From the NCBI GenBank assembly GCA_022601635.1, contig JAJACG010000022.1:5790-69789 (forward strand): a DNA stretch of 64,000 bases, read 5' to 3'. The notes beneath the pieces are model-generated. The model was not told the origin of the DNA. It made no database searches and saw only the letters and a program-made list of their open reading frames with translations. The first letter of the stretch is position 1; each line of letters begins with the position of its first letter. Below, one piece after another: positions 18,209-50,854 of this stretch. Source of the stretch: Chlamydiales bacterium. GTDB taxonomy: Bacteria > Chlamydiota > Chlamydiia > Chlamydiales > JAAKFR01. Both the position numbers and the translations under genes were made by a program.

Positions 18209-19307
18209 AATTGTTCAGACGCTGAATGACGCAGGCTTTATTGCCTACTACGCAGGTGGCTATGTGCGCGACAAACTCTTGGGGTTAGAGCCTCATGAGG
18301 TGGATATTGCCACAAATGCAACCGTGCAGCAGGTGCAAGAGCTTTTTCCCAAAACGATTCCTGTTGGTATTTCATTTGGCGTCGTCATTGTGATGGATGG
18401 GAGTGATCCTTTTGAGGTCGCCACCTTTCGCAGTGATGGTGACTATGAAGATGGCCGTCATCCCACCTCTATCTCCTACTGCTCTCCTGAAGAGGATGCT
18501 AAGAGGCGCGATTTTACCATCAATGGCATGTTCTACGATCCACTGACAGATCAGGTGCATGACTTTGTTGAGGGGCGGGAGGATTTAAAAAGTGGAATTA
18601 TTCGCGCGATTGGAAATCCCAAGCTGCGCTTTGAGGAGGATCGTTTGCGCATGGTGCGCGCTATTCGCTTTGCAGCGCGCTTTGATTTTAAGATTGAGAA
18701 GAAGACAGCAACAGCAATCAAAGAGCAGGCTTCAACACTCTTCCCTGCCGTTTCAATTGAAAGAATCTGGCAGGAGTTTGGCAAGATGGTTCATAAGGGC
18801 AAGGCCTATTTGATGCTCTATGAATTTGGACTACTCCAAACTATTTTCCCAGCACTCAAAAATCAATCGATCGAAGAGCGAGTAAAGCCATTTGACAACT
18901 TTCCAAAAGAAACACCTACTATTCTCTATCTTCGAGAGCTTTTGGTTGATACAGATGGACTTGTCGAAAAAATGAAGGCGAGCCGCCGCGACCAAAAGCT
19001 CTTGGACTACTTTGATACAAAGTGCACAGATCTGTTTGATTGGACCCATTTCTATCGCAGTGAATTTTTGCCGCTATTTCTATCGATTGAGGAGGCGAAG
19101 GGTGTTGATATTTCTGAACATCAAGAGCGGATTGCGAAGTTGAAGGAGCACATTGAGAGGAGGGAGCCAGTAGTTAGTTCTACCCTCTTAAAAGAGCGCG
19201 GTATTAAGCCTGGACCGCAGATGGGCAAGCTTTTGGAGCAAGCGGAGCGACTTGCTATCAATGAGGATTTGACAGCGCAAGAGGTGCTCGTTAGACTGGG
19301 CGTGTGA
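18186..19307 (+). CDS. tRNA nucleotidyltransferase / poly(A) polymerase family protein (CCA-adding or PcnB-like)
   Basis: The motif [21 protein letters not shown] carries the GGxVRD and DxD nucleotidyltransferase elements, and RRDFTINGM is also present. The probable start is ATG 18186, inside the clpX 3' end. Confidence 0.8.
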
Positions 19308-20359
19308 AATATCCCATCTACAATAAAAAGGCCTACCTCGCTCTCTACCTAATCGACACACTTTTGAAACTGCTGCCGCGTAAGAAGAGTGAGATCTCTT
19401 ATGACTCTCTACTTCTTTGTAATATCGCCCATATCGGGGATGTGATTTTGACAACTTCATTGCTGAAGCCTATCAAAGAGGCTTTTCCTAATATGAAACT
19501 AGGGATGTTGATCAATAGCTGCGCCCGCCCAATCGTCGAGGGGCAGGTCGATCATTTGCACATCTTTGATCACTGGAAGCTTGGAGGCAACAGCCGAGAT
19601 TGCAAAAAGGTGATTGAAGAGATCAAAGGGTATAGCATTGCTGTTGACTGCAACTTTCACTATCCCAATAGCAGTCCCCTTCTTTGGCAGGCGAAGATTC
19701 CAACACGCATTGGCTTTACAAGTGCTGGCTTTGGTCCCCTTCTCACACACAGCTACTCTTGGCAGACAGAGGATGTTCCTGCACCCCAAATCTATGCACG
19801 GCTACTCAAACCGCTCGGTATTGACGCAGTACCAACTAAGCCGCAGATAGTCACTAGTGCCATAGAAAAGAAAGAGTACATTGTTGTTCATCCTTGCAGT
19901 CGAAATGCTCGAAAAGAGTGGCCTGCTGCCAAGTGGAAAGAGCTACTTCAGCGCTTTCCCAAGAGTCAGCTGCTCTTTACAGGACGTGGAAAGCGCGAAA
20001 AGGCGTTTATAGAATCAATCATACCAGCAAATGGAACCAATCTCTGTGATCAGCTCTCTTGGAGTGAATTTGTGACAACGATTGCCGAAGGCGCACTGCT
20101 GCTTACTGTTGATACAAGTGCTGGACATATAGCTGCAGCGGTCGATACGCCTGTTGTTGCGATTCACCCCGCTATTCACCATGAAAAGTTGTGGAAGCCC
20201 TATGGTGAAAAGGTAACAGTTGTGCGCCAAAATCCAGATTGCTCACCCTGCTTTACAGGGTGTGAATCGATGGAGTGTATCAAAACGATTTCGGTCGATA
20301 GAGTCTACGATGCCGCGCAAGCAATGATACCGCGTCCCACCTCTCCACGCTCTAGCTGA
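19304..20359 (+). CDS. Glycosyltransferase family 9 (heptosyltransferase-like)
   Basis: 351 aa with a GTG start. Supporting segments are NIAHIGDVILTTSLLKPIKEAFP, VVHPCSRNARKEWPAAKWKELL, and the C-terminal LLLTVDTSAGHIAAAVDTPVVAI, which is the typical GT9 donor-site region. Confidence 0.7.
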   Translation: MKYPIYNKKAYLALYLIDTLLKLLPRKKSEISYDSLLLCNIAHIGDVILTTSLLKPIKEAFPNMKLGMLINSCARPIVEGQVDHLHIFDHWKLGGNSRDCKKVIEEIKGYSIAVDCNFHYPNSSPLLWQAKIPTRIGFTSAGFGPLLTHSYSWQTEDVPAPQIYARLLKPLGIDAVPTKPQIVTSAIEKKEYIVVHPCSRNARKEWPAAKWKELLQRFPKSQLLFTGRGKREKAFIESIIPANGTNLCDQLSWSEFVTTIAEGALLLTVDTSAGHIAAAVDTPVVAIHPAIHHEKLWKPYGEKVTVVRQNPDCSPCFTGCESMECIKTISVDRVYDAAQAMIPRPTSPRSS

Positions 20360-21330
20360 TCAACAAGAGTATTGATCTCACGAAGCGGAACCTCATGGGT
20401 GATCAATTCGGTGAGTTTCAACTCCCCCTTCAAAAAGAGGTCGGCGTAGTAGGCAACATCCTCATCAACTTGGCTCTTTCCACCCCATGTACCTCTAATC
20501 TGCTTGCCACAGATCAGATCAAAGGGATCGATAGAAATCGTCTGTCCTTTGGGAAGATTTCCAGCCAAAACACAGAGACCAGGCGATCGTAGAGAGCGGT
20601 AGGCCGCCTCCATCGCCTCTTTGCGCCCAGCCGACTCAAAAGCGTAGTCAACACCACCACAAATCTCATGAATCTGGCTAGCTGGATCTTTCCTGGCATC
20701 CACAAGATGTGTTGCTCCAAGCTCTTTGGCGCGCTGCAGCTTCTTCTCACAGATATCTACCGCAATGACTGGATTTGCTCCACGTGAAACAGCACAAAGA
20801 AGACCGCTGAGCCCAACTCCACCGCAACCAAAGAGAGCAAAGGAGGAACCCTCTTCTAACTGCATCTCATTTTTCACAACCCCAGCGCCTGTCGGCAGTG
20901 CGCAGCCAAGAAGAGCTGCCTCTTTAAGTGGCATCTCTTTTGGAATGGGAACAAGGCGATTTTCAGAGACAACGGCGCACTCCATAAAGGTGCTGATCGC
21001 ACCAGAATTGATTGCCCCATCTTCAGAACTGTACTGCGTTGAGGGAACGTCATGGCCAGCGCCTTTGAGCCAGGTGAGCACCACATGATCACCCTTTTTA
21101 ACCTTGCTCACTGAAGGCCCAACCTCAAGTACGATTCCGGAGCCCTCATGCCCAAGCGTATGAGGCAAAAACTTATCCTCACCCTTGCGTCCAAAAATTT
21201 CATTGAGCTGAGTATGGCAGAGCCCGCTGTAAGCGATCTGTACCAACACCTGGCCCTCTTTCAAGATAGCCGTCTGAAGCTGCATGAGCTCAAGTGGCTG
21301 CTTTGTCTGTTTGAGTACGGCACCTAACAT
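20305..21330 (-). CDS. Zinc-dependent alcohol dehydrogenase family (MDR) oxidoreductase
   Basis: Supporting motifs are GLCHTQLNE...LGHEGSGIVLEVG (catalytic zinc region) and the Rossmann FGCGGVGLSG. The probable start is MLGAVLKQ at 21330, overlapping the upstream methyltransferase stop by 7 nt. Confidence 0.8.
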   Translation of the reverse strand: MLGAVLKQTKQPLELMQLQTAILKEGQVLVQIAYSGLCHTQLNEIFGRKGEDKFLPHTLGHEGSGIVLEVGPSVSKVKKGDHVVLTWLKGAGHDVPSTQYSSEDGAINSGAISTFMECAVVSENRLVPIPKEMPLKEAALLGCALPTGAGVVKNEMQLEEGSSFALFGCGGVGLSGLLCAVSRGANPVIAVDICEKKLQRAKELGATHLVDARKDPASQIHEICGGVDYAFESAGRKEAMEAAYRSLRSPGLCVLAGNLPKGQTISIDPFDLICGKQIRGTWGGKSQVDEDVAYYADLFLKGELKLTELITHEVPLREINTLVDQLERGEVGRGIIACAAS

Positions 21331-22040
21331 TTGGGACCACACGCAACAGCTATATAGTAGTGGGCAAAAGGCATAAAGCCGGTATGGACCATCTCATCGT
21401 TGGCAGCAAATAAGAAGACATGAGAAAAGTGCTTATAGAGCTCCTCTTCTAGCCTCTCATGATCATAGATATTGATATGACCCAGCTTTGCTACATCAGA
21501 TGTGTACTGCTGACTTGGCTTCGAAGGCGTTCCAATCACAGCAATGCCGTTTTCCTTCAGTGATGAAGCTATTTTTCCAAGAAACTGCGTTGCATGCTCC
21601 GGTATGATATGTTCAATCACATCAAAACTGGTGATCGCATTATATTTCTCTTTAGGCTCATACTCAAAAAAGTCAGTATGTACAAATTCTGCTTGCTCGC
21701 TTGCGAAGTTCTTTTTTGCAACTTCTACCGCCTCTTCATCAAAATCAATCCCCTGCACATAGCCGCACTCTTTTGCCAAAAGAAAGGTGCCAAAACCCTC
21801 ATTACAGCCAACATCCATGATACGCTTGCCGCTACCAATCATTTTGGCTGCAAACTTGTAATAGCTCATGCTGTGCATCATCCTTCTGGGAGAGTAATGA
21901 TGCCAAAAAGAGACATACCGTCCTAAATGTATGGGATCTGGTTCTTCAATTTTGTTGTAAACACAATCCCAGCTCGACTTCACATCGTTTGCCATTGGCC
22001 TCCTCATATCTTCTTGCACAAACTGCTGTAGGTGACTCAC
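21324..22040 (-). CDS. Class I SAM-dependent methyltransferase (paralog of 22770..23438)
   Basis: Motif I is IMDVGCNEGFGT. The tail NDEMVHTGFMPFAHYYIAVAC is shared with the paralog (NDEVVHTGFAKMAQYLFVVAC). The true start is probably internal (MANDVKSS at 21995), and either start overlaps the upstream gene. Confidence 0.75.
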   Translation of the reverse strand: MSHLQQFVQEDMRRPMANDVKSSWDCVYNKIEEPDPIHLGRYVSFWHHYSPRRMMHSMSYYKFAAKMIGSGKRIMDVGCNEGFGTFLLAKECGYVQGIDFDEEAVEVAKKNFASEQAEFVHTDFFEYEPKEKYNAITSFDVIEHIIPEHATQFLGKIASSLKENGIAVIGTPSKPSQQYTSDVAKLGHINIYDHERLEEELYKHFSHVFLFAANDEMVHTGFMPFAHYYIAVACGPKC

Positions 22041-22767
22041 TCACAACAGTGTATTTAACTTGTCTCTCACCCATTTCAACTGGGGCATAAGTGGGCATCA
22101 AACGCTGATCACTGCTCCACCTTGTGATAGAATCTCCATTCATGATACAGCCATGAACAACAGGTAGGCAGAAAACCAACGCTTGCCCAAATTTTAACGG
22201 TACTGGCTTGACCCGATCAGCAACACTATCTTCCATCTTCTGCGGCGCATAGAGAAAGCCGAGCTGATGCTTCTTTGACCCTTTAGTCACCTCTTTACTT
22301 TGGATTTTGGTGGTGGGATAAGCCTCTTCAGACTCGAGATGCGAACCATCAATCATACTCATCGTATTTTTGGGCCCTAGCTCTACAAAAGGTACAAAAA
22401 AGGAGTGTTCATAGGGCGTTCCACCATAGTGACTATCCCGGTGATAGCCAATATTGTCCTGACTCTTCCCTGGTCTTGCAATTCTTAAAAAGGGGTTTGC
22501 CTGCTTGACAATATCTAGACCCATAATTTCTCGAAAGGCGGGCAACAGCGGCGTGATAAAATCATACTCCTGTTCTCTGAAAAATTGGGTCATCTCAATC
22601 TGAATTTTAGAATGCCTGCTATCATCCTCTTCGCGATACTCTTCAAGTGAACATTTTTTCCCAACCAACGAAGAGAGCCTCCCTTCAAGCTCCTCTTTCA
22701 CCCTTTCAAGTTCTGAAATATCTGGGAAATCTAAAACAACCCAGCCCTTATCGATATACTCTTGCAT
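21946..22767 (-). CDS. PhyH-like Fe(II)/2-oxoglutarate dioxygenase (putative)
   Basis: An H-x-D motif in IGYHRDSHYGG and a distal His in MSMIDGSHLESE fit the PhyH facial-triad layout. I re-called the start at ATG 22767 (MQEYIDKGW), just after the upstream stop. Confidence 0.5.
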   Translation of the reverse strand: MQEYIDKGWVVLDFPDISELERVKEELEGRLSSLVGKKCSLEEYREEDDSRHSKIQIEMTQFFREQEYDFITPLLPAFREIMGLDIVKQANPFLRIARPGKSQDNIGYHRDSHYGGTPYEHSFFVPFVELGPKNTMSMIDGSHLESEEAYPTTKIQSKEVTKGSKKHQLGFLYAPQKMEDSVADRVKPVPLKFGQALVFCLPVVHGCIMNGDSITRWSSDQRLMPTYAPVEMGERQVKYTVVSESPTAVCARRYEEANGKRCEVELGLCLQQN

Positions 22768-22769
22768 CA

Positions 22770-23438
22770 CTACCTCTTGTTGCACGCAACGACAAATAGA
22801 TATTGCGCCATTTTAGCAAAGCCTGTGTGGACAACCTCATCATTCATTCCAAAAGAGAAGACATTTTGGAAATACTTCTCAAAGAGTGTTCTCAATCTCT
22901 CTTGCGAGTACATATTGACATGTGCTTCACGACTAAGTTTTGAAGCGTAGGGAGTCGTTGTCTCATTGGGTGTCCCACAAACCACTATACCACCATCATT
23001 TACATGATCAGCAAGCGCTTTCACATAGGTCTCTTCATACTCTTTGTAGATATGCTCGATCACATCGAGACTGACAACCAAATCATGCTCACCAAATGTC
23101 TTGTCAAAGAAATCAGCTGACTCAAAGCCAAAACGCTCCTCATCGAAAATCTTTTTTGCTGACTCAATTTGCGGCTTATCATAGTCGACACCAAAATATT
23201 TGCGTCCTTCAGCTAAAATAGGTGCCCCAATTCCTTCTCCACAACCAAGCTCAATCACGCTCTTCGCATTCTTCGCCATTTTTGAGGCAAACTTGTAACG
23301 CGCGAGCACAAAGGGTAAGCGTTTTGGATCATTGCGAAAATTCCATGACCACACAGTTCCCCATTTTATGCGCTTGGCTGGAAAGTTTGCTTTAACCTCT
23401 TCCCACATCTGCGCTTCTGTAGCATTTGATAAGCTCAT
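22770..23438 (-). CDS. Class I SAM-dependent methyltransferase
   Basis: Motif I is VIELGCGEGIGAP, with SLDVIEHI downstream. It is a paralog of 21324..22040. Confidence 0.75.
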   Translation of the reverse strand: MSLSNATEAQMWEEVKANFPAKRIKWGTVWSWNFRNDPKRLPFVLARYKFASKMAKNAKSVIELGCGEGIGAPILAEGRKYFGVDYDKPQIESAKKIFDEERFGFESADFFDKTFGEHDLVVSLDVIEHIYKEYEETYVKALADHVNDGGIVVCGTPNETTTPYASKLSREAHVNMYSQERLRTLFEKYFQNVFSFGMNDEVVHTGFAKMAQYLFVVACNKR

Positions 23439-24240
23439 CTACTCCCTCTTTCCACTCTTTTATTTCACAAAACGATGCCAAATAGGCTGATTTGGGTCTA
23501 GGTATATTATCGATGTCTGACATACTAATCGCTTTCACACAGCTGCGCTCCATTCCTAAACCTTCAGCTATGTAACAGGCCATCTCATATCGATTTGCGG
23601 GCTCTTTAGGGCAAATCTGAAAAATCCCACGAGCATCCTGGGCCTGCAAATCAAAGAGACAGTTTGACAACTCCTCTATACTGGCAAGCTGCAACTCTTG
23701 ATCAACAGCAGCTTCTACCTCACCTCTATTTAGCAACTTTTGGACAATCTCGTGCATCACATTTTGGTGTGGTCCATAGATGCGACAGAGCCTGATAATT
23801 AGGCAGTCATCTGCCATCTCTCGCATCAAAATCTCTTCCCTTTTAGCATGAATCTCCCCATACATGTTTGTAGGAGAGGTTGGTGAGTGTGGGTAGTAAA
23901 CCTCTTGCTCGCCATCAAAAACTTGTGTCGTTGAAAGCACAACGGGTGTAATCCCACGAACAATAAACTCTCTACAAAGTTCCATAGTACCATCAATATC
24001 TACCTGCCAACAAAGATCTGGCTCCTGAATACAGCGCTGTGGCGTAGAATAGCCCACAGCAATGATAGCCCATCTGTAGCCTTTAGTCGAAAAATTAATA
24101 GTTGGCCTTCTTAGGTCAAGAAAAGGCTGCTCATTTCGACTGGTTCCAATTAGATCCGGATAGTGTTTCTTCAACTCATTGAAAAGATGACTACCAATAA
24201 AGCCTGTAGAACCAACCACAATCGATTTGGGGGGAGTCAT
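23392..24240 (-). CDS. NAD(P)-dependent sugar epimerase/reductase (SDR; RmlD-like size)
   Basis: The Rossmann motif VVGSTGFIGSHL follows the re-called start MTPPKSIVV (ATG 24240). That start forms an ATGA overlap with the GT2 stop. Confidence 0.65.
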   Translation of the reverse strand: MTPPKSIVVGSTGFIGSHLFNELKKHYPDLIGTSRNEQPFLDLRRPTINFSTKGYRWAIIAVGYSTPQRCIQEPDLCWQVDIDGTMELCREFIVRGITPVVLSTTQVFDGEQEVYYPHSPTSPTNMYGEIHAKREEILMREMADDCLIIRLCRIYGPHQNVMHEIVQKLLNRGEVEAAVDQELQLASIEELSNCLFDLQAQDARGIFQICPKEPANRYEMACYIAEGLGMERSCVKAISMSDIDNIPRPKSAYLASFCEIKEWKEGVDELIKCYRSADVGRG

Positions 24241-25121
24241 GAAAAGCGCACTCTCTTTGTTATTGAGCGCCAAATACGCCTCTTTGTCGAACTTTTGGAT
24301 GCTTTGAAAAAATCCCACCACTTGGGCTGCCAGATTAGCTTCCAAAAGAGATTGTCAAAGACAAAGGAGAGCTGCCCTGAATCTCGAAACTTCTGACGCA
24401 ACAAACTATCCTGAGCTACTTGATCAAGTAGTGCTAAATAGGTTCGATTTCGCCTCTTACGATCCTTCTTTACCTTACTCGTATAAGAGTCTTCACACTC
24501 TCTCATGGCAATACCTACTTGAGGTAGGTAGCCGATGCCCTCCAGAAGGGCAATTTTTTGAAACAAGAACCAATCAGAGATATTTTCTAACTTTGGATTG
24601 GGAAGACCATACTTCTTCAAAGTCTCAACCTCTGTGATACAAGCGACCCCGGGTACCCAAAAACCGCTTTTTCTAAAGGTAGAGACAATTTGTTCCTTAT
24701 GGAACGCTATTGGCTTTTCGGAAGGGTAGAGATTGGTCTCACGCGAGCCCTTTTCGGAAAAGTAGCTAATATCACTGCAAACTAACTTCAGCTTCTCTTC
24801 TTGCATAAGCTTCATGCAACCTGACAAATAGCCGGGTAGATAGAGATCATCGGAGCTAAAGATCTGAACAAACTCTCCCTGCACTTCTTTAAAAAGGTCG
24901 GTAACTGTAGCAAAGTAGCCCCTGTTTTTTTTGAAATAGAAGGGGCGAATTCTATCTCCAAAGCTCTCTATTACGGCGCGACTTTCATCTGTAGAAGCGT
25001 CATCTCCAACCAACACTTCAAAGTCATCAAAGTCTTGATTCAAGACAGAATCGATTGTTTCACCCAAAAAGGGGGCGTGATTGTAGTTGGGGATGATGAC
25101 AGAAAGTGCTCGCTTCTTCAC
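24237..25121 (-). CDS. Glycosyltransferase family 2
   Basis: The N-terminal LSVIIPNYNHAPFLGETIDSVLNQ...VGDDASTDES is the classic GT2 (GT-A, DxD-type) head. Confidence 0.85.
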   Translation of the reverse strand: MKKRALSVIIPNYNHAPFLGETIDSVLNQDFDDFEVLVGDDASTDESRAVIESFGDRIRPFYFKKNRGYFATVTDLFKEVQGEFVQIFSSDDLYLPGYLSGCMKLMQEEKLKLVCSDISYFSEKGSRETNLYPSEKPIAFHKEQIVSTFRKSGFWVPGVACITEVETLKKYGLPNPKLENISDWFLFQKIALLEGIGYLPQVGIAMRECEDSYTSKVKKDRKRRNRTYLALLDQVAQDSLLRQKFRDSGQLSFVFDNLFWKLIWQPKWWDFFKASKSSTKRRIWRSITKRVRFS

Positions 25122-25256
25122 AGCTGGTATTGTAGGCTAACTTGTTTCGAACAGCAAGGGCTTTGTCGTGAAACTTTCAGATGTTGTAATCGACTTTTTT
25201 GCAAAGCGTGGTGTGCACCAATATTTGCAATGCCTTTTTTGACTCAGTGCCCCTTG

Positions 25257-25426
25257 TTAAGGAGATACTGAATAAGTACCTTGCTAGAGATTTCGGCAAG
25301 ATTTCTATTGAGGGGAAGTTCGGAGCCGAACGTCTAACCCCTTGCGGGTTAGTGAAGGTGAGAATGATGCAGCGGCGTGAAGATTGACGGAAGATTCAAT
25401 GAGCGAGTTATTCAGTATCTCCTTAA
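25257..25426. repeat. Perfect 19-bp inverted repeat pair enclosing a 132-nt hairpin-rich segment
   Basis: TTAAGGAGATACTGAATAA (25257-25275) is the exact reverse complement of TTATTCAGTATCTCCTTAA (25408-25426). Two local hairpins lie inside: GTTCG-GAGC-CGAAC (25318-25331) and CTAACCC-CTTGC-GGGTTAG (25334-25352). The pair sits in the 499-bp divergent intergenic region of the glycan island. Confidence 0.8.
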
Positions 25427-25620
25427 TGAAGAGTCAGCTGTTGTTAATGGCCGCAATTTTAGCTTGGTACATGATGCATGGGGATCAACAGAGTTGCGTG
25501 AAGATCTTCTGGCAAATAGCGACCTTTATAAGCTAAGGCGCAACCAAGCTCTTTCATCTTGCAGCAAAAGTGATGCAAAACTATAGTTCAACCTTCAACA
25601 AGTGATCAAAGGAGAGAAAC

Positions 25621-29631: not shown

Positions 29632-29642
29632 GAGTAGCTAAA

Positions 29643-33211: not shown

Positions 33212-33220
33212 GAGTTCTTA

Positions 33221-34594: not shown

Positions 34595-34622
34595 ATCAGC
34601 CAGCCTTATTCAACAACGCCCT
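34593..34622. repeat. Short relic motif shared with 5916..5962
   Basis: AAATCAGCCAGCCTTATTCAACAACGCCCT begins inside the stop codon of ORF 33221..34594. It matches the ABC-pseudogene segment upstream of paralog A, apart from a 17-nt indel. Confidence 0.7.
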
Positions 34623-34677
34623 CCAAACACAGTAATTGACTAAAAAGTGCACGAAATAATATGTGTTGAACGCATCA

Positions 34678-37738: not shown

Positions 37739-37749
37739 TATTTCTCTCC

Positions 37750-39179: not shown

Positions 39180-39181
39180 TG

Positions 39182-40153: not shown

Positions 40154-40207
40154 GACCAAGACGATATCAAGGTGGACAATTTGCGTCATTTCATTTAGCC
40201 TGGTTGC

Positions 40208-41386
40208 ATGAAGTGTCGTGTTTGTGATCAAGAGGATTTATCGCTTGCAATTGATCTAGGCAAGCAACCGTGGGGAAACCACTTTCTACAAAAAGAAGAG
40301 GTTGGCAAAGAGCCTTTCTATCCCTTGGAAGTGCATTACTGTCACAGTTGCGCTACTGCCCAACTAAATTACACAGTAAAAAAAGAAGTGATGTTTGCTG
40401 ACACTACCTACCTGTCAGGCACAACTCGCACACTATCTAGCCATTTCAAAGAAATTGCAGGAACAATTGACACTCTCTTTTTCAAAGATCAACAAGCGAA
40501 GTCTGCTCTTGATATTGGATCCAATGATGGCACGCAGCTGAGCCACTACAAAGATCTTGGCTATAAAACAGTCGGCGTTGAGTCATCAAAGCGTGTAGCT
40601 GACATCGCCAATCAAAATGGCATTGAAACAGTCAACGGCTTCTTTAATCTCGCATTGGCTAAAGAGCTCAACTGTCACTTTGATGTGATCAATGCAGCTG
40701 GAGTCTTCTTTCACTTAGAGGAGCTACACTCTGTATGTGAAGCGATCAAGGCGCTGTTGAAAAGTGGCGGTGTCTTTGTTTGTCAGTTTTTATATATGAA
40801 GTCGATTATGGAAAACTGCGCCTTTGACCAGATATACCATGAACACCTGCTCTACTATACCTTAGAAACACTCAATACTCTGCTCAAAAGGCATGATCTT
40901 GAGATCTTTGATGCTTTTATGAGTGACATTCATGGGGGATCGATGATTGCAATGATCTCTCACCCAGATGCTCATCCAAAAACTAAACGCTATCAGCAGC
41001 TTTTACAAGAAGAGAGCGATGCTAACTGCAACAGCTATGACTCCTATGTCGATCTAGCAAATAGAGCTAAAAAAATGAAGGAAGAAAATCTCGCCTTTTT
41101 AGAAGGAAAAAGGGGGAAACGCATTTACGGAATGGGGGCTCCTTGCAAAGGCAACACACTCCTCAACTATTTTGGCATAGGAACAGATCATTTGGACTGT
41201 TTGGTCGAAAAGAATGCATTCCGTAAAGGTCTTTACAGCCCTGGAATGCACATCCCTATTTGGCTGGAAGATGAAATGCCTGCACCAGATGTCTACTACG
41301 TACTTGCATGGAATTTTAAGAAAGAGATTTTGAAGAATAACCAACATCTAAAAGAGACTGAATTTTACTTTCCAATCGACCTATGA
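40208..41386 (+). CDS. NDP-sugar C-methyltransferase (TylCIII-like architecture)
   Basis: 392 aa. An N-terminal Cys4 zinc ribbon (CRVCDQ...CHSC) is followed by a SAM-binding core (ALDIGSNDGTQL). The C-terminal domain (IYGMGAPCKGNTLLNYFG...YYVLAWNFKKEI) is typical of sugar C-3/C-5 methyltransferases. Confidence 0.65.
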   Translation: MKCRVCDQEDLSLAIDLGKQPWGNHFLQKEEVGKEPFYPLEVHYCHSCATAQLNYTVKKEVMFADTTYLSGTTRTLSSHFKEIAGTIDTLFFKDQQAKSALDIGSNDGTQLSHYKDLGYKTVGVESSKRVADIANQNGIETVNGFFNLALAKELNCHFDVINAAGVFFHLEELHSVCEAIKALLKSGGVFVCQFLYMKSIMENCAFDQIYHEHLLYYTLETLNTLLKRHDLEIFDAFMSDIHGGSMIAMISHPDAHPKTKRYQQLLQEESDANCNSYDSYVDLANRAKKMKEENLAFLEGKRGKRIYGMGAPCKGNTLLNYFGIGTDHLDCLVEKNAFRKGLYSPGMHIPIWLEDEMPAPDVYYVLAWNFKKEILKNNQHLKETEFYFPIDL

Positions 41387-42312
41387 AGATATTGATTACA
41401 GGCGCTACAGGCTTTATGGGGCGCCATCTTTGCTCTGCACTAAAAGCGCATGAAATCACAGAGGTAAATTCTAAAAACTGTGACTTAACTCTTGCTGATA
41501 GCTTGGAGCAGTTTGAGCAGAAGTTTGATCGCATTTACCATCTAGCCGCCTGGACACAAGCGGGTGACTTCTGCCTATATCATCCTGGTGAACAATGGAT
41601 CGTCAACCAGAAGATCAATACAAATGTTCTTTCTTGGTGGCAAAAGCATCAGCCGCAGGCGAAACTGATTGCAATGGGCACAAGTTGCAGCTATGCCTGC
41701 GATGCAATTTTGACAGAGGAGACCTATCTAGATGGAACACCTATAGATAGCCTATATACCTACGCGATGACAAAAAGGATGTTACTTGTAGGATTAAAGG
41801 CGCTGCATAAGCAGTTTGGACTTCAATACCTCTATATTGTACCCTCTACGCTCTATGGTCCCAACTACCATACAGATGCGAGACAGCTACACTTTATCTT
41901 CGATTTGATTCGCAAAATCATTGCAGGGAAATATGAAGGCGAGTGCGTTGTTTTATGGGGCGATGGCCATCAAAAAAGAGAACTGATCTATATCGATGAT
42001 TTTATTGATGCCTTGGTTCATCTCTCAAATAGTGTTTCTAATCAGATTGTGAATGTTGGCTCTGGTCAAGAGCACACCATCCGTGAGTTCGCAAAAGCTA
42101 TTTGCAATTATGTGGACTATCCCTTTGAAAAGATTGAGTTTGATCTAACGAAGCATGTTGGGGCAAAGTCCAAAGTGCTGAAGGTGGATTTACTTAAGCA
42201 ATTGCATCCAGAGGTTCAGCAGACTCCTCTGAGGTTTGGCTTGGAACAGGCGGTAGAGTGGTTTTTAGATATGCGCACACAATCGCAATATGCGTCCAAC
42301 AATAATTCCTGA
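41383..42312 (+). CDS. NAD(P)-dependent epimerase/reductase (GDP-L-fucose synthase-like SDR)
   Basis: 309 aa with MKILITGATGFMGRHL, YAMTKRM (YxxxK), and a size and C-terminus (GLEQAVEWFL) like Fcl/WcaG-type enzymes. It overlaps the C-methyltransferase by 4 nt. Confidence 0.6.
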   Translation: MKILITGATGFMGRHLCSALKAHEITEVNSKNCDLTLADSLEQFEQKFDRIYHLAAWTQAGDFCLYHPGEQWIVNQKINTNVLSWWQKHQPQAKLIAMGTSCSYACDAILTEETYLDGTPIDSLYTYAMTKRMLLVGLKALHKQFGLQYLYIVPSTLYGPNYHTDARQLHFIFDLIRKIIAGKYEGECVVLWGDGHQKRELIYIDDFIDALVHLSNSVSNQIVNVGSGQEHTIREFAKAICNYVDYPFEKIEFDLTKHVGAKSKVLKVDLLKQLHPEVQQTPLRFGLEQAVEWFLDMRTQSQYASNNNS

Positions 42313-43615
42313 CAAGCGATTGATTGATTTGCCATGTAACCAGCATCACTATCAATGATATAAAAAGAGCTTCTCCTTCCCACAAAATCATCAGTTGTTG
42401 CCTCGGCTGTTGCGTTTTTGACTTGGATTTATAGAGAATAGATCCTCTATATCTATACCTATTCTGATACTCTGAATAGACAATCGGGTCCGCATATTTT
42501 AACCGGTTCAAGACCTTTCTTTGGCGTTTTAAATAAAGAGCAGAGATCGCGATAAAGAAAATTGCAAACGACAGACCGCCCAAAATTCCAAAGCTAGCTA
42601 AAACCTCAGTTCCTACATTTGTAGACTCTGCATCTTTGTAGGTAAGTTCCCTAAGATTGTTTTTGAAACGAGGCAAGACTAATCCCTGCTCAATTTTTGC
42701 CGGTTGAATCCCTCCATACCCATATCCTACTAAAGGCCGCTGCTTAAAGAGGGCTATATTTTGATCAATTCCATGCCATCGATCCCATGCAGAGTGGTGT
42801 TTTCTTCCTTTAGATAGCTTAATCCAATTATCTCCAAGCTTCCCAGGATAAAAAATAGATACCGGAATCAAAAGAAGACCTAAATAGCATGCGAACTTGA
42901 GCCCTTGAGAGCGATATCTTGAAAAAAGCAAGATCGTAGCGATAAAGGCTATATAGGCAAATAATATCGATGTCGTTAGAGAAATACAAAACAGGAAATT
43001 CACTGCAATAATAAACAACCGCAGTGGCCAGTTTTTTACAGGGTTTGCAAAATAGAGCACATTTTGAAGCACCATAAAGGGTGTGAAATACAATGCGTAG
43101 TATGATGGTTCGAATGTCCCAGCATATGGCCTGTCAAATAAAGGCAAATAGCTTAATACTTCCGGTTTCTGAGCAAGCCAAAACCCCTGACAAAAAGCAA
43201 ATATGCCAACCACTACGAAGGAGTAAGAATAGATTCTAAAGACTCTCTCTTTACCGAAAACAGAAAAAAATTGATATGGTAACCAGAAATAACATAGCAA
43301 TGTGTATCCCATCTGAAGCAAATACCAGAAACAACGCGTACGATAGGGTGAGCAGATGCATGACACAACTGTCATTCCTAACATCCCAAGTAAGAATAAC
43401 AATAGCAGCCTATCCATCTTTGCAGAGGCCTTGCCTAAATAGAACAGCATGATTAGCAGAAATATAAAAGAAATAATATTATTTATTCGGACTCGATACC
43501 CAATGACAAAAGATAAACGGTCTGCATGCAAAGTAACAAAGTAGGCAAATAGGCAAAGTGTCATGAAATTAAATGCCTTTCCTACATTTAACACACTAGA
43601 GGTGCTCACTCTCAT
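42194..43615 (-). CDS. Polytopic membrane protein, O-antigen polymerase/ligase (Wzy/WaaL-like) candidate
   Basis: 473 aa with roughly 10 or more hydrophobic segments. A larger loop (HHSAWDRWHGIDQNIALFKQRPLVGYGYGG) is reminiscent of the O-antigen ligase domain loop. The last 119 nt overlap the convergent gene. Confidence 0.5.
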   Translation of the reverse strand: MRVSTSSVLNVGKAFNFMTLCLFAYFVTLHADRLSFVIGYRVRINNIISFIFLLIMLFYLGKASAKMDRLLLLFLLGMLGMTVVSCICSPYRTRCFWYLLQMGYTLLCYFWLPYQFFSVFGKERVFRIYSYSFVVVGIFAFCQGFWLAQKPEVLSYLPLFDRPYAGTFEPSYYALYFTPFMVLQNVLYFANPVKNWPLRLFIIAVNFLFCISLTTSILFAYIAFIATILLFSRYRSQGLKFACYLGLLLIPVSIFYPGKLGDNWIKLSKGRKHHSAWDRWHGIDQNIALFKQRPLVGYGYGGIQPAKIEQGLVLPRFKNNLRELTYKDAESTNVGTEVLASFGILGGLSFAIFFIAISALYLKRQRKVLNRLKYADPIVYSEYQNRYRYRGSILYKSKSKTQQPRQQLMILWEGEALFISLIVMLVTWQINQSLVRNYCWTHIAIVCAYLKTTLPPVPSQTSEESAEPLDAIA

Positions 43616-44361
43616 ACGCGCTTCAAAATGCCCCCCTGTAAATGAGTCACTGGATGCTCTTCACAAAGCTCAAACTCCCCATGCTCCCTCAAAAATGGTT
43701 CGATTGCCCCACAAGGATTGTCCTCCCGCCAATGCTCCTTTCCACGAGGAACATCTACCACTAGAGACTTAACCCCATCACAAACAATCAAATAAGAGTC
43801 TTTAGACACAAGTGGTGCGAAAAGCTCGAGCTCTTTTGCCACATGCTGCTTAGAATGATTGGAGTCCAATACTACCATTACCCTCTCACCATTTAGATTG
43901 AGTTTCTCAATCGTTGCTGGATCCGATGAGTCGCCATCGATCAACGCAATATAGGCAGAAAGATCACTTTCTTCAATTTTTTTTCGATTACAGGCTCGGA
44001 GATCAACATCTATTCCAATCACACGCCCATGACCCAATGCTTTGACAAGCGATCCATAAAAGAGCATCGAACCACCAAGGGCCACACCCGTTTCAATGAT
44101 CACATCGGGCTTAACCTCAAAGATTAACTCCTGCAAGTGTACAAGATCATCTGGTAGTTGCAAAATGGGAAGTCCCATCCACTTGAAACTATAGTGATGC
44201 CTCTGGTTCCAACCAACTTTGAGCCAAAGTTCGCTCAAAAGCTCAAAGCCCTCTTTTGAATAGAGTGGAATTTGACGATCCCCTATTTGAATTTTCTCAG
44301 ACTGAAGAGAGAACTCTTTGCTCAGCATAGGCTGCCTTTCTTCCGATTGAGATGTAGTCAA
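43612..44361 (-). CDS. CmcI/cephalosporin-hydroxylase-family methyltransferase (sugar O-methyltransferase-like)
   Basis: The segments WMGLPILQLPDDLVHLQELIFEVKPDVIIETGVALGGSMLFYG and VVLDSNHSKQHV match the CmcI-family layout seen in O-antigen and glycolipid clusters. Confidence 0.6.
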   Translation of the reverse strand: MTTSQSEERQPMLSKEFSLQSEKIQIGDRQIPLYSKEGFELLSELWLKVGWNQRHHYSFKWMGLPILQLPDDLVHLQELIFEVKPDVIIETGVALGGSMLFYGSLVKALGHGRVIGIDVDLRACNRKKIEESDLSAYIALIDGDSSDPATIEKLNLNGERVMVVLDSNHSKQHVAKELELFAPLVSKDSYLIVCDGVKSLVVDVPRGKEHWREDNPCGAIEPFLREHGEFELCEEHPVTHLQGGILKRV

Positions 44362-45649
44362 AGCCCTGCTTTGTCATCTCTTCAGGATTATATTGATTGC
44401 GACCATCAAAAAAGAGCGTTCCCTTCATGCCTTTTTTTAGGCGCTTCAGATCAACAAAACGGAATTGCTTCCAATCTGTCACAAGAACAACAATATCGGC
44501 ATCTTTCGCAGCCTCATACTCATTGTTGGCCCACTCAATTTGCGGTGATTTTGGTAGAAGCTGCTTCGCCTTATTCATCGCAATTGGATCAAAAAGCGCT
44601 AGGCGTGCTCCCTTCTCGAGTAACGTGCGGATTAAAACAAGAGAGGGCGCTTCACGCATATCATCTGTACCAGGCTTAAAACTGAGTCCCCAGATCGCCA
44701 CCTTTTTCCCATTCACATCAAGATGGCTGGTAATCTTCTCTGAAAGATGCTGCTTTTGTCTCTCGTTGACACTTCGTGTCGCATCAATAATCTCTGTAGG
44801 ATAGCCATGCTTTGTTGCCAGAGCTCCTAGAGCTTTTACATCCTTAGGAAAGCATGATCCCCCATACCCAGCACCTGCATAGAGAAAAGGAAAGCCAATT
44901 CGAGAGTCAGAACCAATACCTTTGCGTACCTGATTAATATCGGCTCCAACAAGCTCACAGAGACCTGCCAACTCATTCATGAAGGAGATCCTAGAAGCAA
45001 GCATCGCGTTTGCAGCATACTTTGTCATTTCACTCGACTCAGGCTCCATCACCAAGATACGATCATGGTTGACATTGAAAGGGGAGTAGAGCTCACGCAT
45101 CAGCGCAATCACGCGTGGATTGCTAGCACCAATCACAATGCGATCCGGCTTCATGAAATCATTGACAGCATCGCCCTCTTTCAAAAACTCAGGATTGGAG
45201 ACAACATCAAACTCAATCTCCTTGCCAAGCTCAACAAGCTTACTGCTGATCGCCTCAGCCACCTCTTTCGTACTGCCAACCGGTACCGTGGACTTATTGA
45301 TGACTACTTTGTAGCCATCCATCTGCTCCGCTAACTGAGCTGCTGCTTGTTTCACATAGGTGAGATCGCAAGAGCCATCCTCACCCTCTGGGGTCGGTAC
45401 TGCCAAAAAGCAAAAGAGTGCTGATGGAACAGCATCTTTATAGCTAGTAGTAAAACGAAGGCGTCCCTCTTTTTGATTGCGCTTCACGATCTCTTCGATG
45501 CCAGGTTCAAAAATGGGAATCGTTCCTCCTTTGAGCATCTCTACCTTCTTCTTATCAATATCAAGACAGGTGGCATCATGCCCCATCTCTGCAAAACAGG
45601 CTCCCGTAACGAGCCCAACATATCCTGTTCCAATGACCAATATCTGCAT
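44297..45649 (-). CDS. ugd: UDP-glucose 6-dehydrogenase
   Basis: 450 aa starting MQILVIGTGYVGLVTGACFAEMGH (Rossmann). The catalytic Cys context is YGGSCFPKDV, and GLSFKPGTDDMREAPS is also present. Confidence 0.9.
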   Translation of the reverse strand: MQILVIGTGYVGLVTGACFAEMGHDATCLDIDKKKVEMLKGGTIPIFEPGIEEIVKRNQKEGRLRFTTSYKDAVPSALFCFLAVPTPEGEDGSCDLTYVKQAAAQLAEQMDGYKVVINKSTVPVGSTKEVAEAISSKLVELGKEIEFDVVSNPEFLKEGDAVNDFMKPDRIVIGASNPRVIALMRELYSPFNVNHDRILVMEPESSEMTKYAANAMLASRISFMNELAGLCELVGADINQVRKGIGSDSRIGFPFLYAGAGYGGSCFPKDVKALGALATKHGYPTEIIDATRSVNERQKQHLSEKITSHLDVNGKKVAIWGLSFKPGTDDMREAPSLVLIRTLLEKGARLALFDPIAMNKAKQLLPKSPQIEWANNEYEAAKDADIVVLVTDWKQFRFVDLKRLKKGMKGTLFFDGRNQYNPEEMTKQGFDYISIGRKAAYAEQRVLSSV

Positions 45650-45705
45650 AGCAATGCGACGATAGCCAATTGCTTTTTAATAATCCAGCCCATTAAACTC
45701 ATGCC

Positions 45706-46632
45706 ATGTCAAACAAGCGAGTCGTCGTTACTGGCGGAGCGGGATTTGTCGGCTCCCACCTCTGCCAAGCCCTGATCAATCAGGGCCACAAAGTCATCTG
45801 CGTTGATAATTACTTCACGGGATCTCGCAACAATCTCAATGATTTAGATGTAGAAATCATTGAACACGATGTCTGCAATCCACTGGATATCAAGGCCGAC
45901 GAATTTTATAACCTCGCCTGTCCCGCCTCTCCTGTTCACTACCAAAGTAGCCCCATTCAGACCACAAAGACAGCAGTGCTTGGCACACTTCACCTTTTAG
46001 AGGCGGCTCAAAAGTGTGACGCACGCCTTTTGCAAGCCTCTACAAGCGAAATCTATGGTGATCCCGAAATCCACCCTCAAGATGAGAGCTATTGGGGCAA
46101 TGTAAACCCGATTGGCATACGCAGCTGCTATGATGAGGGGAAGCGCTGTGCTGAAACTTTGGTTGTCGATTTTCAGCGCTATGGTGTTCAAACCCGTTTA
46201 GCACGCATTTTCAACACCTATGGTCCACATATGCATCCCAATGATGGGCGGGTGGTCTCTAACTTTATCCTGCAAGCACTGCAAAATCAGCCTATTACCG
46301 TTTATGGCCAAGGGCAGCAGACGCGCTCTTTCTGCTTTGTTTCCGATTTAGTCGCAGGTTTGATGAGCTTGATGGCAAGTGATGAGCTGGGACCGGTTAA
46401 CTTAGGCAATCCTGCTGAATTTACTATCTTGGAGTTGGCGCAGATGATTATTGAGATGACTGATTCAAAGTCAGAAATTCTCTATGAGCCGCTGCCAAGT
46501 GATGATCCAAGAAGGCGCAAGCCTGACATTTCAAAGGCCAGGAGGGTGCTTGATTGGGAACCCGCTGTTGCTTTGAAAGAGGGGCTTGAAAAGACGATCA
46601 ACTATTTTGAAGGAGTGCTTGCCCATTCATGA
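45706..46632 (+). CDS. uxs: UDP-glucuronate decarboxylase (UDP-xylose synthase)-like SDR
   Basis: Supporting motifs are [40 protein letters not shown] (YxxxK context typical of UXS) and RIFNTYGP. It is divergent from ugd. Confidence 0.8.
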
Positions 46633-47606
46633 AGCGTGTTTTAGTCACAGGAGCTGCTGGGTTTATTGGATCGCATACAGCGCTCGCCTTGAAGGAGGCT
46701 GGTCATGAAGTGGTTGGTCTCGATAATTTCAACGACTACTACTCAGTTGATCTGAAAAGAGCGCGTGCGCAGCGCTTAGAGCAGAATGGAATTTCGGTGA
46801 TTGAGGGCGATCTATGTGACAAGGGGCTACTTGAAGAGCTAGTTTCAGATTGCACACATGTTCTCAACTTAGCCGCGCAGGCAGGTGTTCGCTATGCCAA
46901 GAAAAATCCAAACTCCTATTTGAAGAGCAACCTTGAGGGATTTTTAAATCTCTTGGAGGTTTTGAAAAGCAGACCTGAAATCAAACTAGTATACGCTTCA
47001 TCTTCATCGGTTTACGGCTGTAACGAAAAGACACCCTTTTCGACTGAGGATCGAACCGACCAACCAGCCAACCTCTACGCTGCAACAAAAAAAGCTAATG
47101 AGCTCATGGCTTATAGCTACCACCATCTCTTCGGTTTGACAACAGTTGGGCTTCGCTATTTCACTGTTTACGGTCCTTGGGGCAGACCCGATATGGCCTA
47201 CTTCTCTTTTACTGAAGCGATTTTGAAGGGAGAGCCTATCACTCTCTTTAACCGCGGTCAGATGTGGCGCGATTTCACCTACATCGATGACGTTGTAACT
47301 GGAACAATCGCTGCTCTTGACTACGACCAAAACAGCGTCTTCAACCTGGGCAATCACAGATGTGAGGAACTCGCCTATTTTGTCTCTATTTTAGAACAGG
47401 AGCTGGGAAAAGGAGCTGATATTCGACTGATCGATGAGGCACCAGGTGAGATGATTCGCACTTGGGCAGATATTTCAGATGCCAAGAAAAAGTTAGGCTA
47501 CCAACCGAAAACCTCACTGAAAGAGGGGCTTGCCCAATTCATTCAGTGGCACAAAAGGTATGCATCTGGAAGTGCTTCTGTGATGTCAGAAGCGACAACG
47601 CAGTAA
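46629..47606 (+). CDS. UDP-glucuronate 4-epimerase-like SDR
   Basis: Supporting motifs are [49 protein letters not shown] and [13 protein letters not shown], the last being typical of the CapI/LpsL-type. Confidence 0.75.
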
Positions 47607-48898: not shown

Positions 48899-48900
48899 CA

Positions 48901-50726: not shown

Positions 50727-50730
50727 GAAT

Positions 50731-50793: not shown

Positions 50794-50801
50794 TACGTGT
50801 G

Positions 50802-50829: not shown

Positions 50830-50854
50830 AGCGTTTTAAAATAAGGGCACTCGA

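Follow-up and report, generated by a model that had tools for sequence, protein, structure and literature searches.

A chlamydia-wide glycan locus with a conserved 13-gene core, probably for a heptose-based surface glycan

Chlamydial surface chemistry is known almost entirely from the Chlamydiaceae. We have analysed a stretch of 64,000 nucleotides (the window) from a Chlamydiales bacterium (assembly GCA_022601635.1, contig JAJACG010000022.1, positions 5,790 to 69,789), in which 29 contiguous genes at positions 19304-47606 all belong to nucleotide-sugar or glycan families, as judged by a six-frame open reading frame (ORF) map together with Pfam and NCBIfam. The block is flanked by SNF2 helicase-tig-clpP-clpX-cca on the left and by nnr-FkbM-mreC on the right. 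Here, we show that it is a genuine and undescribed glycan system that is found across the chlamydiae, with a conserved core and a flexible periphery, and that it is no single foreign island. Probably, the locus is native to the chlamydiae and serves to make a complex heptose-based surface glycan, with three modules and scattered transferases as its parts. It stands out by a reversed HldE-like fusion, an E1-type enzyme pair that would introduce a C-branch on a heptose scaffold, a chlamydia-specific GT9 glycosyltransferase and an expansion of TIGR04372 glycosyltransferases. A sequence-only reading of the same DNA had proposed a dense glycan-biosynthesis block within a chlamydial housekeeping backbone, and the 29 genes and their flanks bear this out; it had also allowed for profile hidden Markov models placing most of the ORFs in non-glycan families, and this is not what the models gave.

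The left half of the block encodes the core cassette and the putative module 1 (SAM, S-adenosylmethionine; 2OG, 2-oxoglutarate; NDP, nucleoside diphosphate; ThDP, thiamine diphosphate; SDR, short-chain dehydrogenase/reductase; ADH, alcohol dehydrogenase):

19304-20359, + strand: g01, GT9 glycosyltransferase (heptosyltransferase family); Pfam Glyco_transf_9, 90 bits
20305-21342, - strand: g02, Zn-dependent ADH, core, last gene of core half B; Pfam ADH_N and ADH_zinc_N
21324-22040, - strand: g03, class I SAM methyltransferase, core; Pfam, NCBIfam
21946-22785, - strand: g04, 2OG/Fe(II) oxygenase, core; weak PhyH match
22770-23438, - strand: g05, class I SAM methyltransferase, core; Pfam
23392-24345, - strand: g06, RmlD-like NDP-sugar 4-ketoreductase, core; RmlD_sub_bind, 99.6 bits
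24237-25121, - strand: g07, GT2 glycosyltransferase, first gene of the leftward operon; Glycos_transf_2, 99 bits
25122-25620: divergent intergenic region of 499 bp; ORF map
25621-26595, + strand: g08, extended SDR, core; Epimerase, 137 bits
26592-27590, + strand: g09, extended SDR, GalE/TviC/Pal-like 4-epimerase or 4-oxidase, core; Pfam, NCBIfam
27563-28162, + strand: g10, GmhA-like SIS isomerase, core; SIS_2
28117-29631, + strand: g11, HldE-like bifunctional enzyme, core; CTP_transf_like at residues 29-119, PfkB at 376-487
29601-30512, + strand: g12, ThDP-dependent E1 alpha-like subunit, 303 amino acids, core; E1_dh, 188 bits
30427-31566, + strand: g13, E1 beta-like subunit, core; Transket_pyr and Transketolase_C
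31563-32555, + strand: g14, NDP-sugar 4,6-dehydratase-like SDR, core; dTDP-glucose 4,6-dehydratase model, 221 bits against a cut-off of 365
32555-33211, + strand: g15, class I SAM methyltransferase, core; Pfam

The core cassette consists of the 13 genes g02-g06 and g08-g15, that is two SDRs, the GmhA-like isomerase, the domain-swapped HldE-like enzyme, the E1 alpha/beta pair, the 4,6-dehydratase, three methyltransferases, the 2OG oxygenase, the RmlD-like reductase and the Zn-ADH. It is accompanied by the GT9 gene g01, whose start overlaps the cca stop by 4 nt. The likely true start of g13 lies at 30505 and gives a protein of 353 amino acids, to which a deposited 353-residue protein (P0176) is identical.

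Look-ups around cca, GT9 and E1 beta homologues led to seven further chlamydial loci. The core cassette is complete or largely so in five of the genomes (L089, L090, L091, L093 and L094), while in a second sponge metagenome-assembled genome (MAG; L087) a reduced form of it occupies the same cca-GT9 site. L086, which is the most closely related (SNF2 83%, cca 63% identical), has the first gene only: the ADH (84% identity) directly follows cca, and then the contig ends. Gene order within the cassette is conserved across these related loci, and the site is mostly linked to cca. In L094 (2.4-Mb contig) a single co-directional operon, 2 kb away from cca, comprises g08-g15, g06, g05, g04, g03 and g02, and L089 (1.8-Mb contig) reads SNF2-RHS-tig-clpP-clpX-cca-GT9, followed by the same core genes as one operon up to the end of the stretch fetched. 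As judged by these two loci, which carry the genes in one co-directional operon, the ancestral 13-gene operon was split in the window at 25122-25620, with one half inverted. L090 (2.6-Mb contig) shows cca-GT9, an insertion sequence (IS) element and then the order ADH, methyltransferase, methyltransferase, oxygenase, methyltransferase, reductase, methyltransferase, dehydratase. In the closed 1.9-Mb Simkaniaceae genome CP073763.1 (L091) the cassette adjoins topA and comes with Wzy_C, GT4, an embedded MsbA-like exporter and GT2. The groundwater chlamydia L093 has the eight-gene first half and the ADH, flanked by Wzy_C, ManC, three GT4, an ATP-binding cassette (ABC) exporter and a TIGR04372 glycosyltransferase. 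The element in L090 (12090-13141), which lies between GT9 and ADH, is an IS-like pair of a helix-turn-helix protein and DDE_3, and the insertion between SNF2 and tig in L089 (1028-5644) encodes an RHS/YD-shell protein of 1538 amino acids; both are signs of rearrangement at this site.

Identity of the core genes to those of L089, L090, L091, L093 and L094 ranges from 29 to 79%, most genes lying at 44-79%, with g06, the least conserved core gene, as an outlier at 29-37%. The flanks in the same genomes are 47-49% (tig), 76-79% (clpX) and 48-56% (cca) identical. Among the single genes, g02 orthologues are 54-84% identical in L086, L089, L090, L091, L093 and L094, g03 is 48-57% identical in L089, L090, L091 and L094, and g08 71-72% in L091, L093 and L094; g14 reaches 71-79% in four loci and only 36% in L087. 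In the other loci g04 (44-51%), g05 (49-54%), g09 (64-77%), g10 (51-59%) and g15 (65-75%) fall in the same range. The top 120 homologues of the E1 beta subunit g13 have identities of 65-84%, and those with a name all come from chlamydiae. For the GT9 g01 there are about 33 homologues at 33-47% identity, all source-named ones from chlamydial MAGs, and the next best named matches, from other phyla, are at most 28% identical. Since the core identities resemble those of the housekeeping flanks and the cassette occupies its usual cca-linked site, the left half (g01-g15) appears, on sequence grounds, to be an old, chlamydia-specific conserved cassette and no recent foreign island.

The sequence-only reading had proposed a synteny comparison with chlamydial relatives; syntenic orthologous clusters do exist, none of them characterised, and its claim of novelty survives. 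In the literature searched we found no description of a locus of this kind for Chlamydiota and nothing that links chlamydiae with heptosyltransferases, heptose or O-antigen synthesis.

An SIS isomerase plus a fused kinase and nucleotidyltransferase is the hallmark of heptose activation. In module 1 the isomerase g10 contains an SIS_2 domain and scores 85.8 bits with the gmhA model TIGR00441 (cut-off 209). The order of domains in g11 is reversed: the N-terminus holds the nucleotidyltransferase (rfaE domain II, residues 15-157) and the C-terminus the PfkB kinase (rfaE domain I, residues 187-496). Neither rfaE domain reaches its cut-off, the scores being 98.5 bits where 345 are required and 99.6 where 181.5 are. 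The same reversed order is seen in every chlamydial copy (L087, L089, L091, L093 and L094). The closest solved relative of g14 is the dTDP-glucose 4,6-dehydratase PDB 6bi4 (1e-51). The oxygenase g04 matches TIGR04324, a 'sporadic carbohydrate cluster 2OG-Fe(II) oxygenase' model, with 64 bits (cut-off 150) and has the residues H115-x-D117 and H211; the second oxygenase of the block, g20, has H134-x-D136 and H234.

From these families we infer substrates and a C-branching reaction for module 1. The GmhA-like isomerase and the domain-swapped HldE-like kinase/nucleotidyltransferase would activate a heptose from sedoheptulose-7-phosphate, and the 4,6-dehydratase g14 would make an NDP-4-keto-6-deoxy intermediate. 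With ThDP and pyruvate, the E1 alpha/beta pair could then attach a branch of two carbons, in the way proposed for AviB1/AviB2 and Pau11/Pau12. Keto groups would be reduced by the Zn-ADH or the RmlD-like reductase, and the three methyltransferases and the 2OG oxygenase would decorate the sugar. Because the heptose genes lie amid those for methyltransferases, an oxygenase, a dehydratase and a ThDP enzyme, a much-modified product is to be expected. The chlamydia-specific GT9 would transfer this sugar, most likely onto the core of Kdo and lipid A.

The right half of the block holds the second and third putative modules and further transferases (GlcA, glucuronic acid):

33221-34594, + strand: g16, TIGR04372-family glycosyltransferase; TIGR04372, 87 bits against a cut-off of 45, no Pfam match
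34663-35874, + strand: g17, TIGR04372-family glycosyltransferase; TIGR04372, 172 bits, no Pfam match
35869-36849, - strand: g18, GT2 glycosyltransferase; Glycos_transf_2, 74 bits
36803-37738, - strand: g19, extended SDR of the GDP-heptose/C-methyl cassette; Pfam
37750-38520, - strand: g20, PhyH-like 2OG oxygenase; PhyH, 35 bits
38514-39179, - strand: g21, HddC-like heptose-1-phosphate guanylyltransferase; NTP_transferase
39182-40231, - strand: g22, HddA-like GHMP heptose-7-phosphate kinase; GHMP_kinases_N and _C, called start 40189, gene call of 335 amino acids
40208-41386, + strand: g23, NDP-sugar 3-C-methyltransferase (TylC3/TcaB9 type); Methyltransf_13, _23 and _14
41383-42312, + strand: g24, GDP-fucose-synthase-like 3,5-epimerase/4-reductase; Fcl model, 147 bits against a cut-off of 500
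42194-43615, - strand: g25, Wzy_C-family polytopic membrane protein (ligase, polymerase or oligosaccharyltransferase type); Wzy_C, 33.5 bits against a cut-off of 31.7
43612-44361, - strand: g26, CmcI/rhamnosyl O-methyltransferase family; RMNT_CmcI, 184 bits
44297-45649, - strand: g27, UDP-glucose 6-dehydrogenase (Ugd); three UDPG_MGDP_dh domains
45706-46632, + strand: g28, UXS/ArnA-like SDR (UDP-GlcA decarboxylase type); Pfam, NCBIfam
46629-47606, + strand: g29, extended SDR, epimerase type (GalE/HldD/TviC-like); Pfam, heptose_epim model, 136 bits against a cut-off of 275

The operons of the whole block run rightward (g01), leftward (g07-g02), rightward (g08-g17), leftward (g22-g18), rightward (g23-g24), leftward (g27-g25) and rightward (g28-g29). 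For g21 and g22 the best NCBIfam matches are HddC (164 bits, cut-off 300) and HddA (144 bits, cut-off 600). The methyltransferase g23 has a zinc-binding N-domain, a SAM domain and a C-terminal Methyltransf_14 domain (Methyltransf_13 70.6 bits, Methyltransf_14 134 bits) and matches the D-mycarose 3-C-methyltransferase PDB 4rv9 over its full length (residues 2-377, 1.9e-61); judged by this similarity, it is a bona fide sugar 3-C-methyltransferase. Because its neighbours are HddA and HddC, its substrate would be a heptose. g24 matches GDP-L-fucose synthases in the PDB (2e-27), and g27 scores 457 bits with the NDP-sugar dehydrogenase subfamily model, above the cut-off of 190. In module 2 (g19 and g21-g24, with g18 and g20) HddA and HddC would make GDP-D-glycero-alpha-D-manno-heptose, which the SDR oxidase, the TylC3-type C-methyltransferase and the Fcl-like epimerase/reductase would convert to a 3-C-methyl derivative. 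Module 3 (g27-g29, with g26) would supply UDP-GlcA and a UDP-pentose and provide an O-methyltransferase.

Nearly every family in the inventory of the sequence-only reading was reproduced where that reading had placed it: one GT9 and two GT2 (g01; g07 and g18), five methyltransferases (g03, g05, g15, the C-methyltransferase g23 and the CmcI-like g26), two PhyH-like 2OG oxygenases, the Zn-ADH, the E1 pair, GmhA, two heptose-activation modules, the Wzy_C-type protein, Ugd and, just beyond the block, an FkbM-type methyltransferase. The gene families likewise support the predicted capacity for heptose, uronate/pentose, C-methyl and O-methyl groups and hydroxylation. Its count of eight extended SDRs is right (g06, g08, g09, g14, g19, g24, g28 and g29), but the UXS-like and epimerase-like enzymes that it had listed in addition are already among these eight. 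We count three divergent junctions (25122-25620, about 40190-40207 and 45650-45705) and not two. The two ORFs without a Pfam match (33221-34594 and 34663-35874) are TIGR04372 glycosyltransferases with a mutual identity of only 23%.

The borders of the block had also been drawn too narrowly, as related glycan genes lie at 2773-7781 and 48901-52105, so that glycan and housekeeping genes are interleaved over about 50 kb:

2773-3780, + strand: group-1 (GT4-like) glycosyltransferase; Glyco_trans_1_4, Glycos_transf_1
3835-5658, + strand: MsbA/HepA-like ABC exporter, a candidate flippase in which the membrane and ATPase domains are fused; ABC_membrane, ABC_tran
6537-7781, + strand: third TIGR04372 glycosyltransferase, 41% identical to g17; TIGR04372
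48901-49758, - strand: FkbM-family methyltransferase between nnr and mreC; Methyltransf_21, 75 bits, fkbM_fam, 79 bits against a cut-off of 38
50855-52105, + strand: fourth TIGR04372 glycosyltransferase; TIGR04372, 156 bits

With these the window encodes four TIGR04372 glycosyltransferases (6537-7781, g16, g17 and 50855-52105) and eight glycosyltransferases in all (GT9, two GT2, four TIGR04372 and one GT4-like). The exporter matches HepA best (294 bits, MsbA_rel 291 bits, both below cut-off). In L093 an ABC exporter and a TIGR04372 glycosyltransferase (33% identical to 6537-7781) lie directly beside the cassette, and in L091 the exporter lies inside it; orthology of the window exporter with the cassette-embedded one is, at 29-32% identity, unproven. 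The last three genes of the satellite block 2773-7781 are AT-rich (GC 0.39-0.41), and an ABC C-terminal fragment of 189 amino acids (5978-6547) is probably the remnant of a second exporter. The AT-rich TIGR04372 gene at 50855-52105 is bracketed by a 63-nt direct repeat (50731-50793 and 52106-52168, 94% identical), of which the right copy is the 3' end of an aminotransferase gene (52097-53230, minus strand) and the left copy a duplicate just upstream of mreC. The arrangement resembles a scar left by the insertion of a single gene.

For acceptor and export we infer a lipooligosaccharide (LOS)-like route. The eight glycosyltransferases would build a non-repeating oligosaccharide stepwise on lipid A-Kdo, the MsbA-like ABC exporter would flip it, and the Wzy_C protein g25, which has at least six hydrophobic segments and gave no match in a PDB sequence search, would act at the periplasmic face. 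Neither a Wzx/Wzy-dependent O-antigen set, of which we found the marginal Wzy_C match only, nor an ABC-dependent set is present, the only exporter being the MsbA/HepA-like fused half-transporter. Pfam and NCBIfam scans of the 64-kb window showed no Wzx, Wzz, Wzm/Wzt, KpsM/KpsT, Wza/Wzc or initiating phosphoglycosyltransferase. An AlphaFold model of g17 (four-sequence alignment, pLDDT 61), a protein with no close relative in JGI metagenomes, has its best matches among GT-B/GT9 heptosyltransferases, which is a weak hint at a heptose-rich chain.

Several points weigh against the heptose-based, lipid A-linked glycan that we favour. The matches to GmhA, HldE, HddA, HddC, HldD and heptosyltransferases all lie below the NCBIfam equivalog cut-offs, and for this reason heptose itself is not proven. 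A GmhB (HAD-type) phosphatase turned up neither in the scanned ORFs of the window nor at the seven related loci, but it could be encoded in another part of the genome. g14 reads SSPEVYG (with YAASK) where RmlB has STDEVYG, so that Pro stands in place of the catalytic Asp; the reaction may not be that of standard RmlB. A Wzy_C protein normally implies a flipped lipid-linked substrate, and an initiating phosphoglycosyltransferase is not present in the window. The structural matches of g17 come from a model of pLDDT 61 with TM-scores of 0.28-0.38, the window exporter is only 29-32% identical to the cassette-linked exporters of L091 and L093, and nothing in the data ties the glycan to lipid A as opposed to a protein or an undecaprenyl carrier.

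A rival reading has a product that is not linked to lipopolysaccharide (LPS), such as protein O-glycosylation (for example GT9/TibC-like heptosylation of autotransporter-type surface proteins, or a PglL-like Wzy_C oligosaccharyltransferase), a capsule-like polymer or an exported glycolipid. We consider such a product unlikely. It would fit that g01 falls below the cut-off of every LPS heptosyltransferase equivalog in NCBIfam (WaaC, WaaF and WaaQ at most 65 bits against cut-offs of at least 134) and that the best match of the exporter, HepA, is a glycolipid/polysaccharide exporter. The Wzy_C family is generally known to include O-oligosaccharyltransferases, with a match that is marginal here, and TibC, a protein heptosyltransferase, is among the fold matches of g17. 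However, the fold evidence is weak, GT9 enzymes are in general overwhelmingly LPS-core enzymes, and initiating phosphoglycosyltransferase, Wzx, Wza/Wzc and KpsMT were not seen in the 64 kb.

The sequence-only reading had suggested mosaic acquisition of the 28 kb, from the AT-richness of several members. That the whole stretch between cca and nnr is a recently acquired mosaic genomic island now appears improbable. The AT-richness is real for g16-g18, g20 and g25 (GC 0.375-0.40, GC at third codon positions (GC3) 0.31-0.39), and g16-g21 with g25 have lower GC3 (0.31-0.40), but these values lie within the range of the backbone genes (GC3 0.32-0.62). In the per-gene GC3 and codon-usage check that the same reading had suggested, the island is not separated from the backbone (GC3 0.436 against 0.474, Mann-Whitney p = 0.059; overlapping codon-usage distances). 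At the edges, at 19.3 kb and 47.6 kb, we found no tRNA, integrase, IS element or repeat, and Rfam gave two tRNAs only in the window (14945 and 53273), neither at an edge; the marks of a mobile genomic island, namely flanking tRNA or repeats, integrase or IS and deviant composition, are thus lacking for 19304-47606. A promoter and terminator scan of 19-38.9 kb gave counts at or below chance. A genome scan with the cca alignment listed mostly Planctomycetota and Verrucomicrobiota, and among the matches listed only L006 shared synteny; this relative has SNF2-tig-clpP-clpX-cca and no island gene in the 4.3 kb after cca, which speaks for recent acquisition. Against this stand the conservation of g01-g15 in other chlamydiae, with flank-like identities at the same cca-linked site, and the interleaving of glycan and housekeeping genes from 2.7 to 52.1 kb.

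Mosaic acquisition does hold on a smaller scale, for the repeat-bracketed glycosyltransferase and for the g19/g21-g24 cassette. A metagenome scan with the C-methyltransferase g23 gave 80 loci at 59-66% identity, in 62 of which g23 is paired with g24. g19, g22, g23 and g24 occur together on about 40 of the 80 contigs (40-71% identity), g21 on fewer; g19 homologues (46-64% identity) stand beside the C-methyltransferase in 37 loci, and the adjacent HddA and HddC genes (g22/g21) co-occur in 33-35. g20 had no match in the 80 loci and falls outside this widespread cassette. Because the contigs that share it have GC contents of 0.27-0.67 and are devoid of chlamydial backbone genes, the distribution points to a cassette that moves across phyla, and these contigs, with identities of 40-66%, count in favour of the island reading. 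The nearest metagenome locus, L096 (GC 0.42), is collinear for g19, g21, g22 / g23, g24 / Wzy_C, Ugd. After its sugar genes lies an RHS-repeat protein of 1374 amino acids (10421-14542) with a C-terminal DUF687 domain, a family which we take to be chlamydial, and given this domain L096 may itself be chlamydial.

Still less probable than a single recent island is that the E1 pair and the Zn-ADH are catabolic enzymes, an acetoin dehydrogenase AcoA-B and an S-(hydroxymethyl)glutathione/formaldehyde dehydrogenase, that merely happen to lie inside a sugar cluster. A study of sponge-associated chlamydiae reported AcoA-B acetoin dehydrogenase and S-(hydroxymethyl)glutathione dehydrogenase and read them as acetoin and formaldehyde catabolism, with no mention of LPS, heptose, O-antigen or glycosyltransferases (PMC9666466). 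The genes at 29601-31566 and 20305-21342 are likely those published there; homologues of g13 from sponge-chlamydia MAGs bear the name AcoB, and class III ADH is the best NCBIfam match of g02. The scores, however, are far below the equivalog cut-offs (g02 208 bits against 544; g12 260 against 394 with the pyruvate dehydrogenase (PDH) E1 alpha model; g13 299 against 321). g12 retains the GEG...ENN motif, aligns only to residues 41-285 of human E1 alpha and lacks the C-terminal part, and sequence relatives of the pair in the PDB are E1 of PDH and of branched-chain alpha-keto acid dehydrogenase only. No E2 (AcoC) or E3 (AcoL) gene was found in the window or beside the pair in the seven loci. The pair is translationally coupled in the window and always stands between the HldE-like and 4,6-dehydratase genes in related loci. 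Because of this conserved operon context we favour sugar tailoring by the E1 pair and the Zn-ADH, and on this analysis it is more likely that the pair adds a C-branch to a sugar than that it acts as an acetoin dehydrogenase.

An assembly chimera, finally, is ruled out by independent assemblies in which both junctions recur at 100% identity: five contigs that are 100% identical to the window jointly cover 34297-53301, right junction included, and a separate Logan contig reproduces tig-clpP-clpX-cca-GT9-ADH...GT2 on the left. Contigs of three separate runs, of an NCBI metagenome assembly and of an ENA assembly all carry the Ugd protein g27. On a contig of 182,762 bp there is a deposited protein, named 'MAG: CCA-adding enzyme [Chlamydiales bacterium]', that is identical to the cca protein of the window, and the named cca homologues among the best 120 are all chlamydial except one MAG labelled Verrucomicrobia. 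Run accessions and the ENA label 'DHAR22' suggest the marine-sponge metagenomes of PMC9666466 as the source. The window also encodes a UPF0242-family protein and a type III secretion SctJ-like protein; the ORF of the latter kind (1615-2751) combines a YscJ/FliF-family domain with a FliG middle domain and is an SctJ-like or flagellar-relic protein of a type seen in chlamydiae. The longest tig ORF (TTG at 14860) has a tRNA-Gly (14945-15016, + strand) within its 5' end, and for this reason the true tig start lies downstream of the tRNA; tig proteins of relatives have 403-441 amino acids.

In Chlamydiaceae, the LOS consists of lipid A with a Kdo trisaccharide and has no heptose. Going further than the reading of the window as a native heptose-glycan locus, we tentatively propose, at less than even odds, that many environmental chlamydiae share a phylum-specific 13-gene pathway that turns a heptose into a 6-deoxy, C-branched and multiply methylated higher-carbon sugar, which GT9 attaches to LOS. 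If this were true, the Kdo-only LOS of Chlamydiaceae would be a derived, reduced state, and the ancestral chlamydial envelope would have borne a decorated glycan that the pathogens lost in genome reduction. Activated heptoses are innate-immune signals in animals, and host recognition could then vary sharply within the phylum. What has been called 'acetoin dehydrogenase' and 'formaldehyde dehydrogenase' in sponge chlamydiae would be sugar-tailoring enzymes, a caution against annotating pathways from single genes, as the same genes were read as acetoin and formaldehyde catabolism. E1-type ThDP C-branching would occur in a Gram-negative envelope glycan on a heptose scaffold, and g10-g15 offer a defined enzyme set for a possible new route to branched higher-carbon sugars.

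Among known systems, the ADP-heptose pathway of the LPS inner core also combines an SIS isomerase, a PfkB-nucleotidyltransferase fusion, an epimerase-type SDR and a GT9 in one locus. Here, in contrast, the domain order of the fusion is reversed, the components score below the equivalog cut-offs, GmhB is absent from the loci, the heptose genes stand among those for sugar modification, and the GT9 clade is found only in chlamydiae. AviB1/AviB2 (avilamycin) and Pau11/Pau12 (paulomycin) are E1-type pairs proposed to install a C-4 acetyl branch from pyruvate on 4-keto sugars, whereas Gram-negative bacteria use the single flavoprotein YerE for branching (yersiniose, LPS; PMC4753412), so that an E1-type pair in a Gram-negative locus would be unusual. 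The likeness is one of gene context, an E1 alpha/beta pair without E2/E3 next to an NDP-sugar 4,6-dehydratase and reductases; the known pairs belong to Gram-positive antibiotic clusters with hexose- or pentose-derived sugars, whereas ours lies in a Gram-negative, heptose-type locus. Module 2 resembles GDP-D-glycero-alpha-D-manno-heptose pathways in its HddA-like and HddC-like enzymes followed by SDR oxidase/reductase steps and an Fcl-like reductase. It differs in the coupled TylC3-type 3-C-methyltransferase, the lack of a cupin-type 3,5-epimerase and scores below the equivalog cut-offs. Such GDP-heptose systems serve the capsules of Campylobacter jejuni and Burkholderia pseudomallei, Yersinia pseudotuberculosis O:2a and the Aneurinibacillus S-layer, and we know of no TylC3-type 3-C-methyltransferase in a characterised heptose-tailoring set. 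With TylC3/TcaB9 g23 shares full-length similarity, including the N-terminal zinc-binding domain, and it is paired with an Fcl-like enzyme, but its neighbours are HddA/HddC and not Gmd or RmlA/RmlB; for 3-C-methylation the virenose of the Coxiella burnetii O-antigen, with its proposed GDP-based route, offers a comparison. A further contrast lies within the phylum itself. C. trachomatis CT708-CT705 presumably shows the same SNF2-tig-clpP-clpX synteny, and unlike the Chlamydiaceae with their Kdo-only LOS, this chlamydia has genes for no fewer than eight further glycosyltransferases and for three nucleotide-sugar modules.

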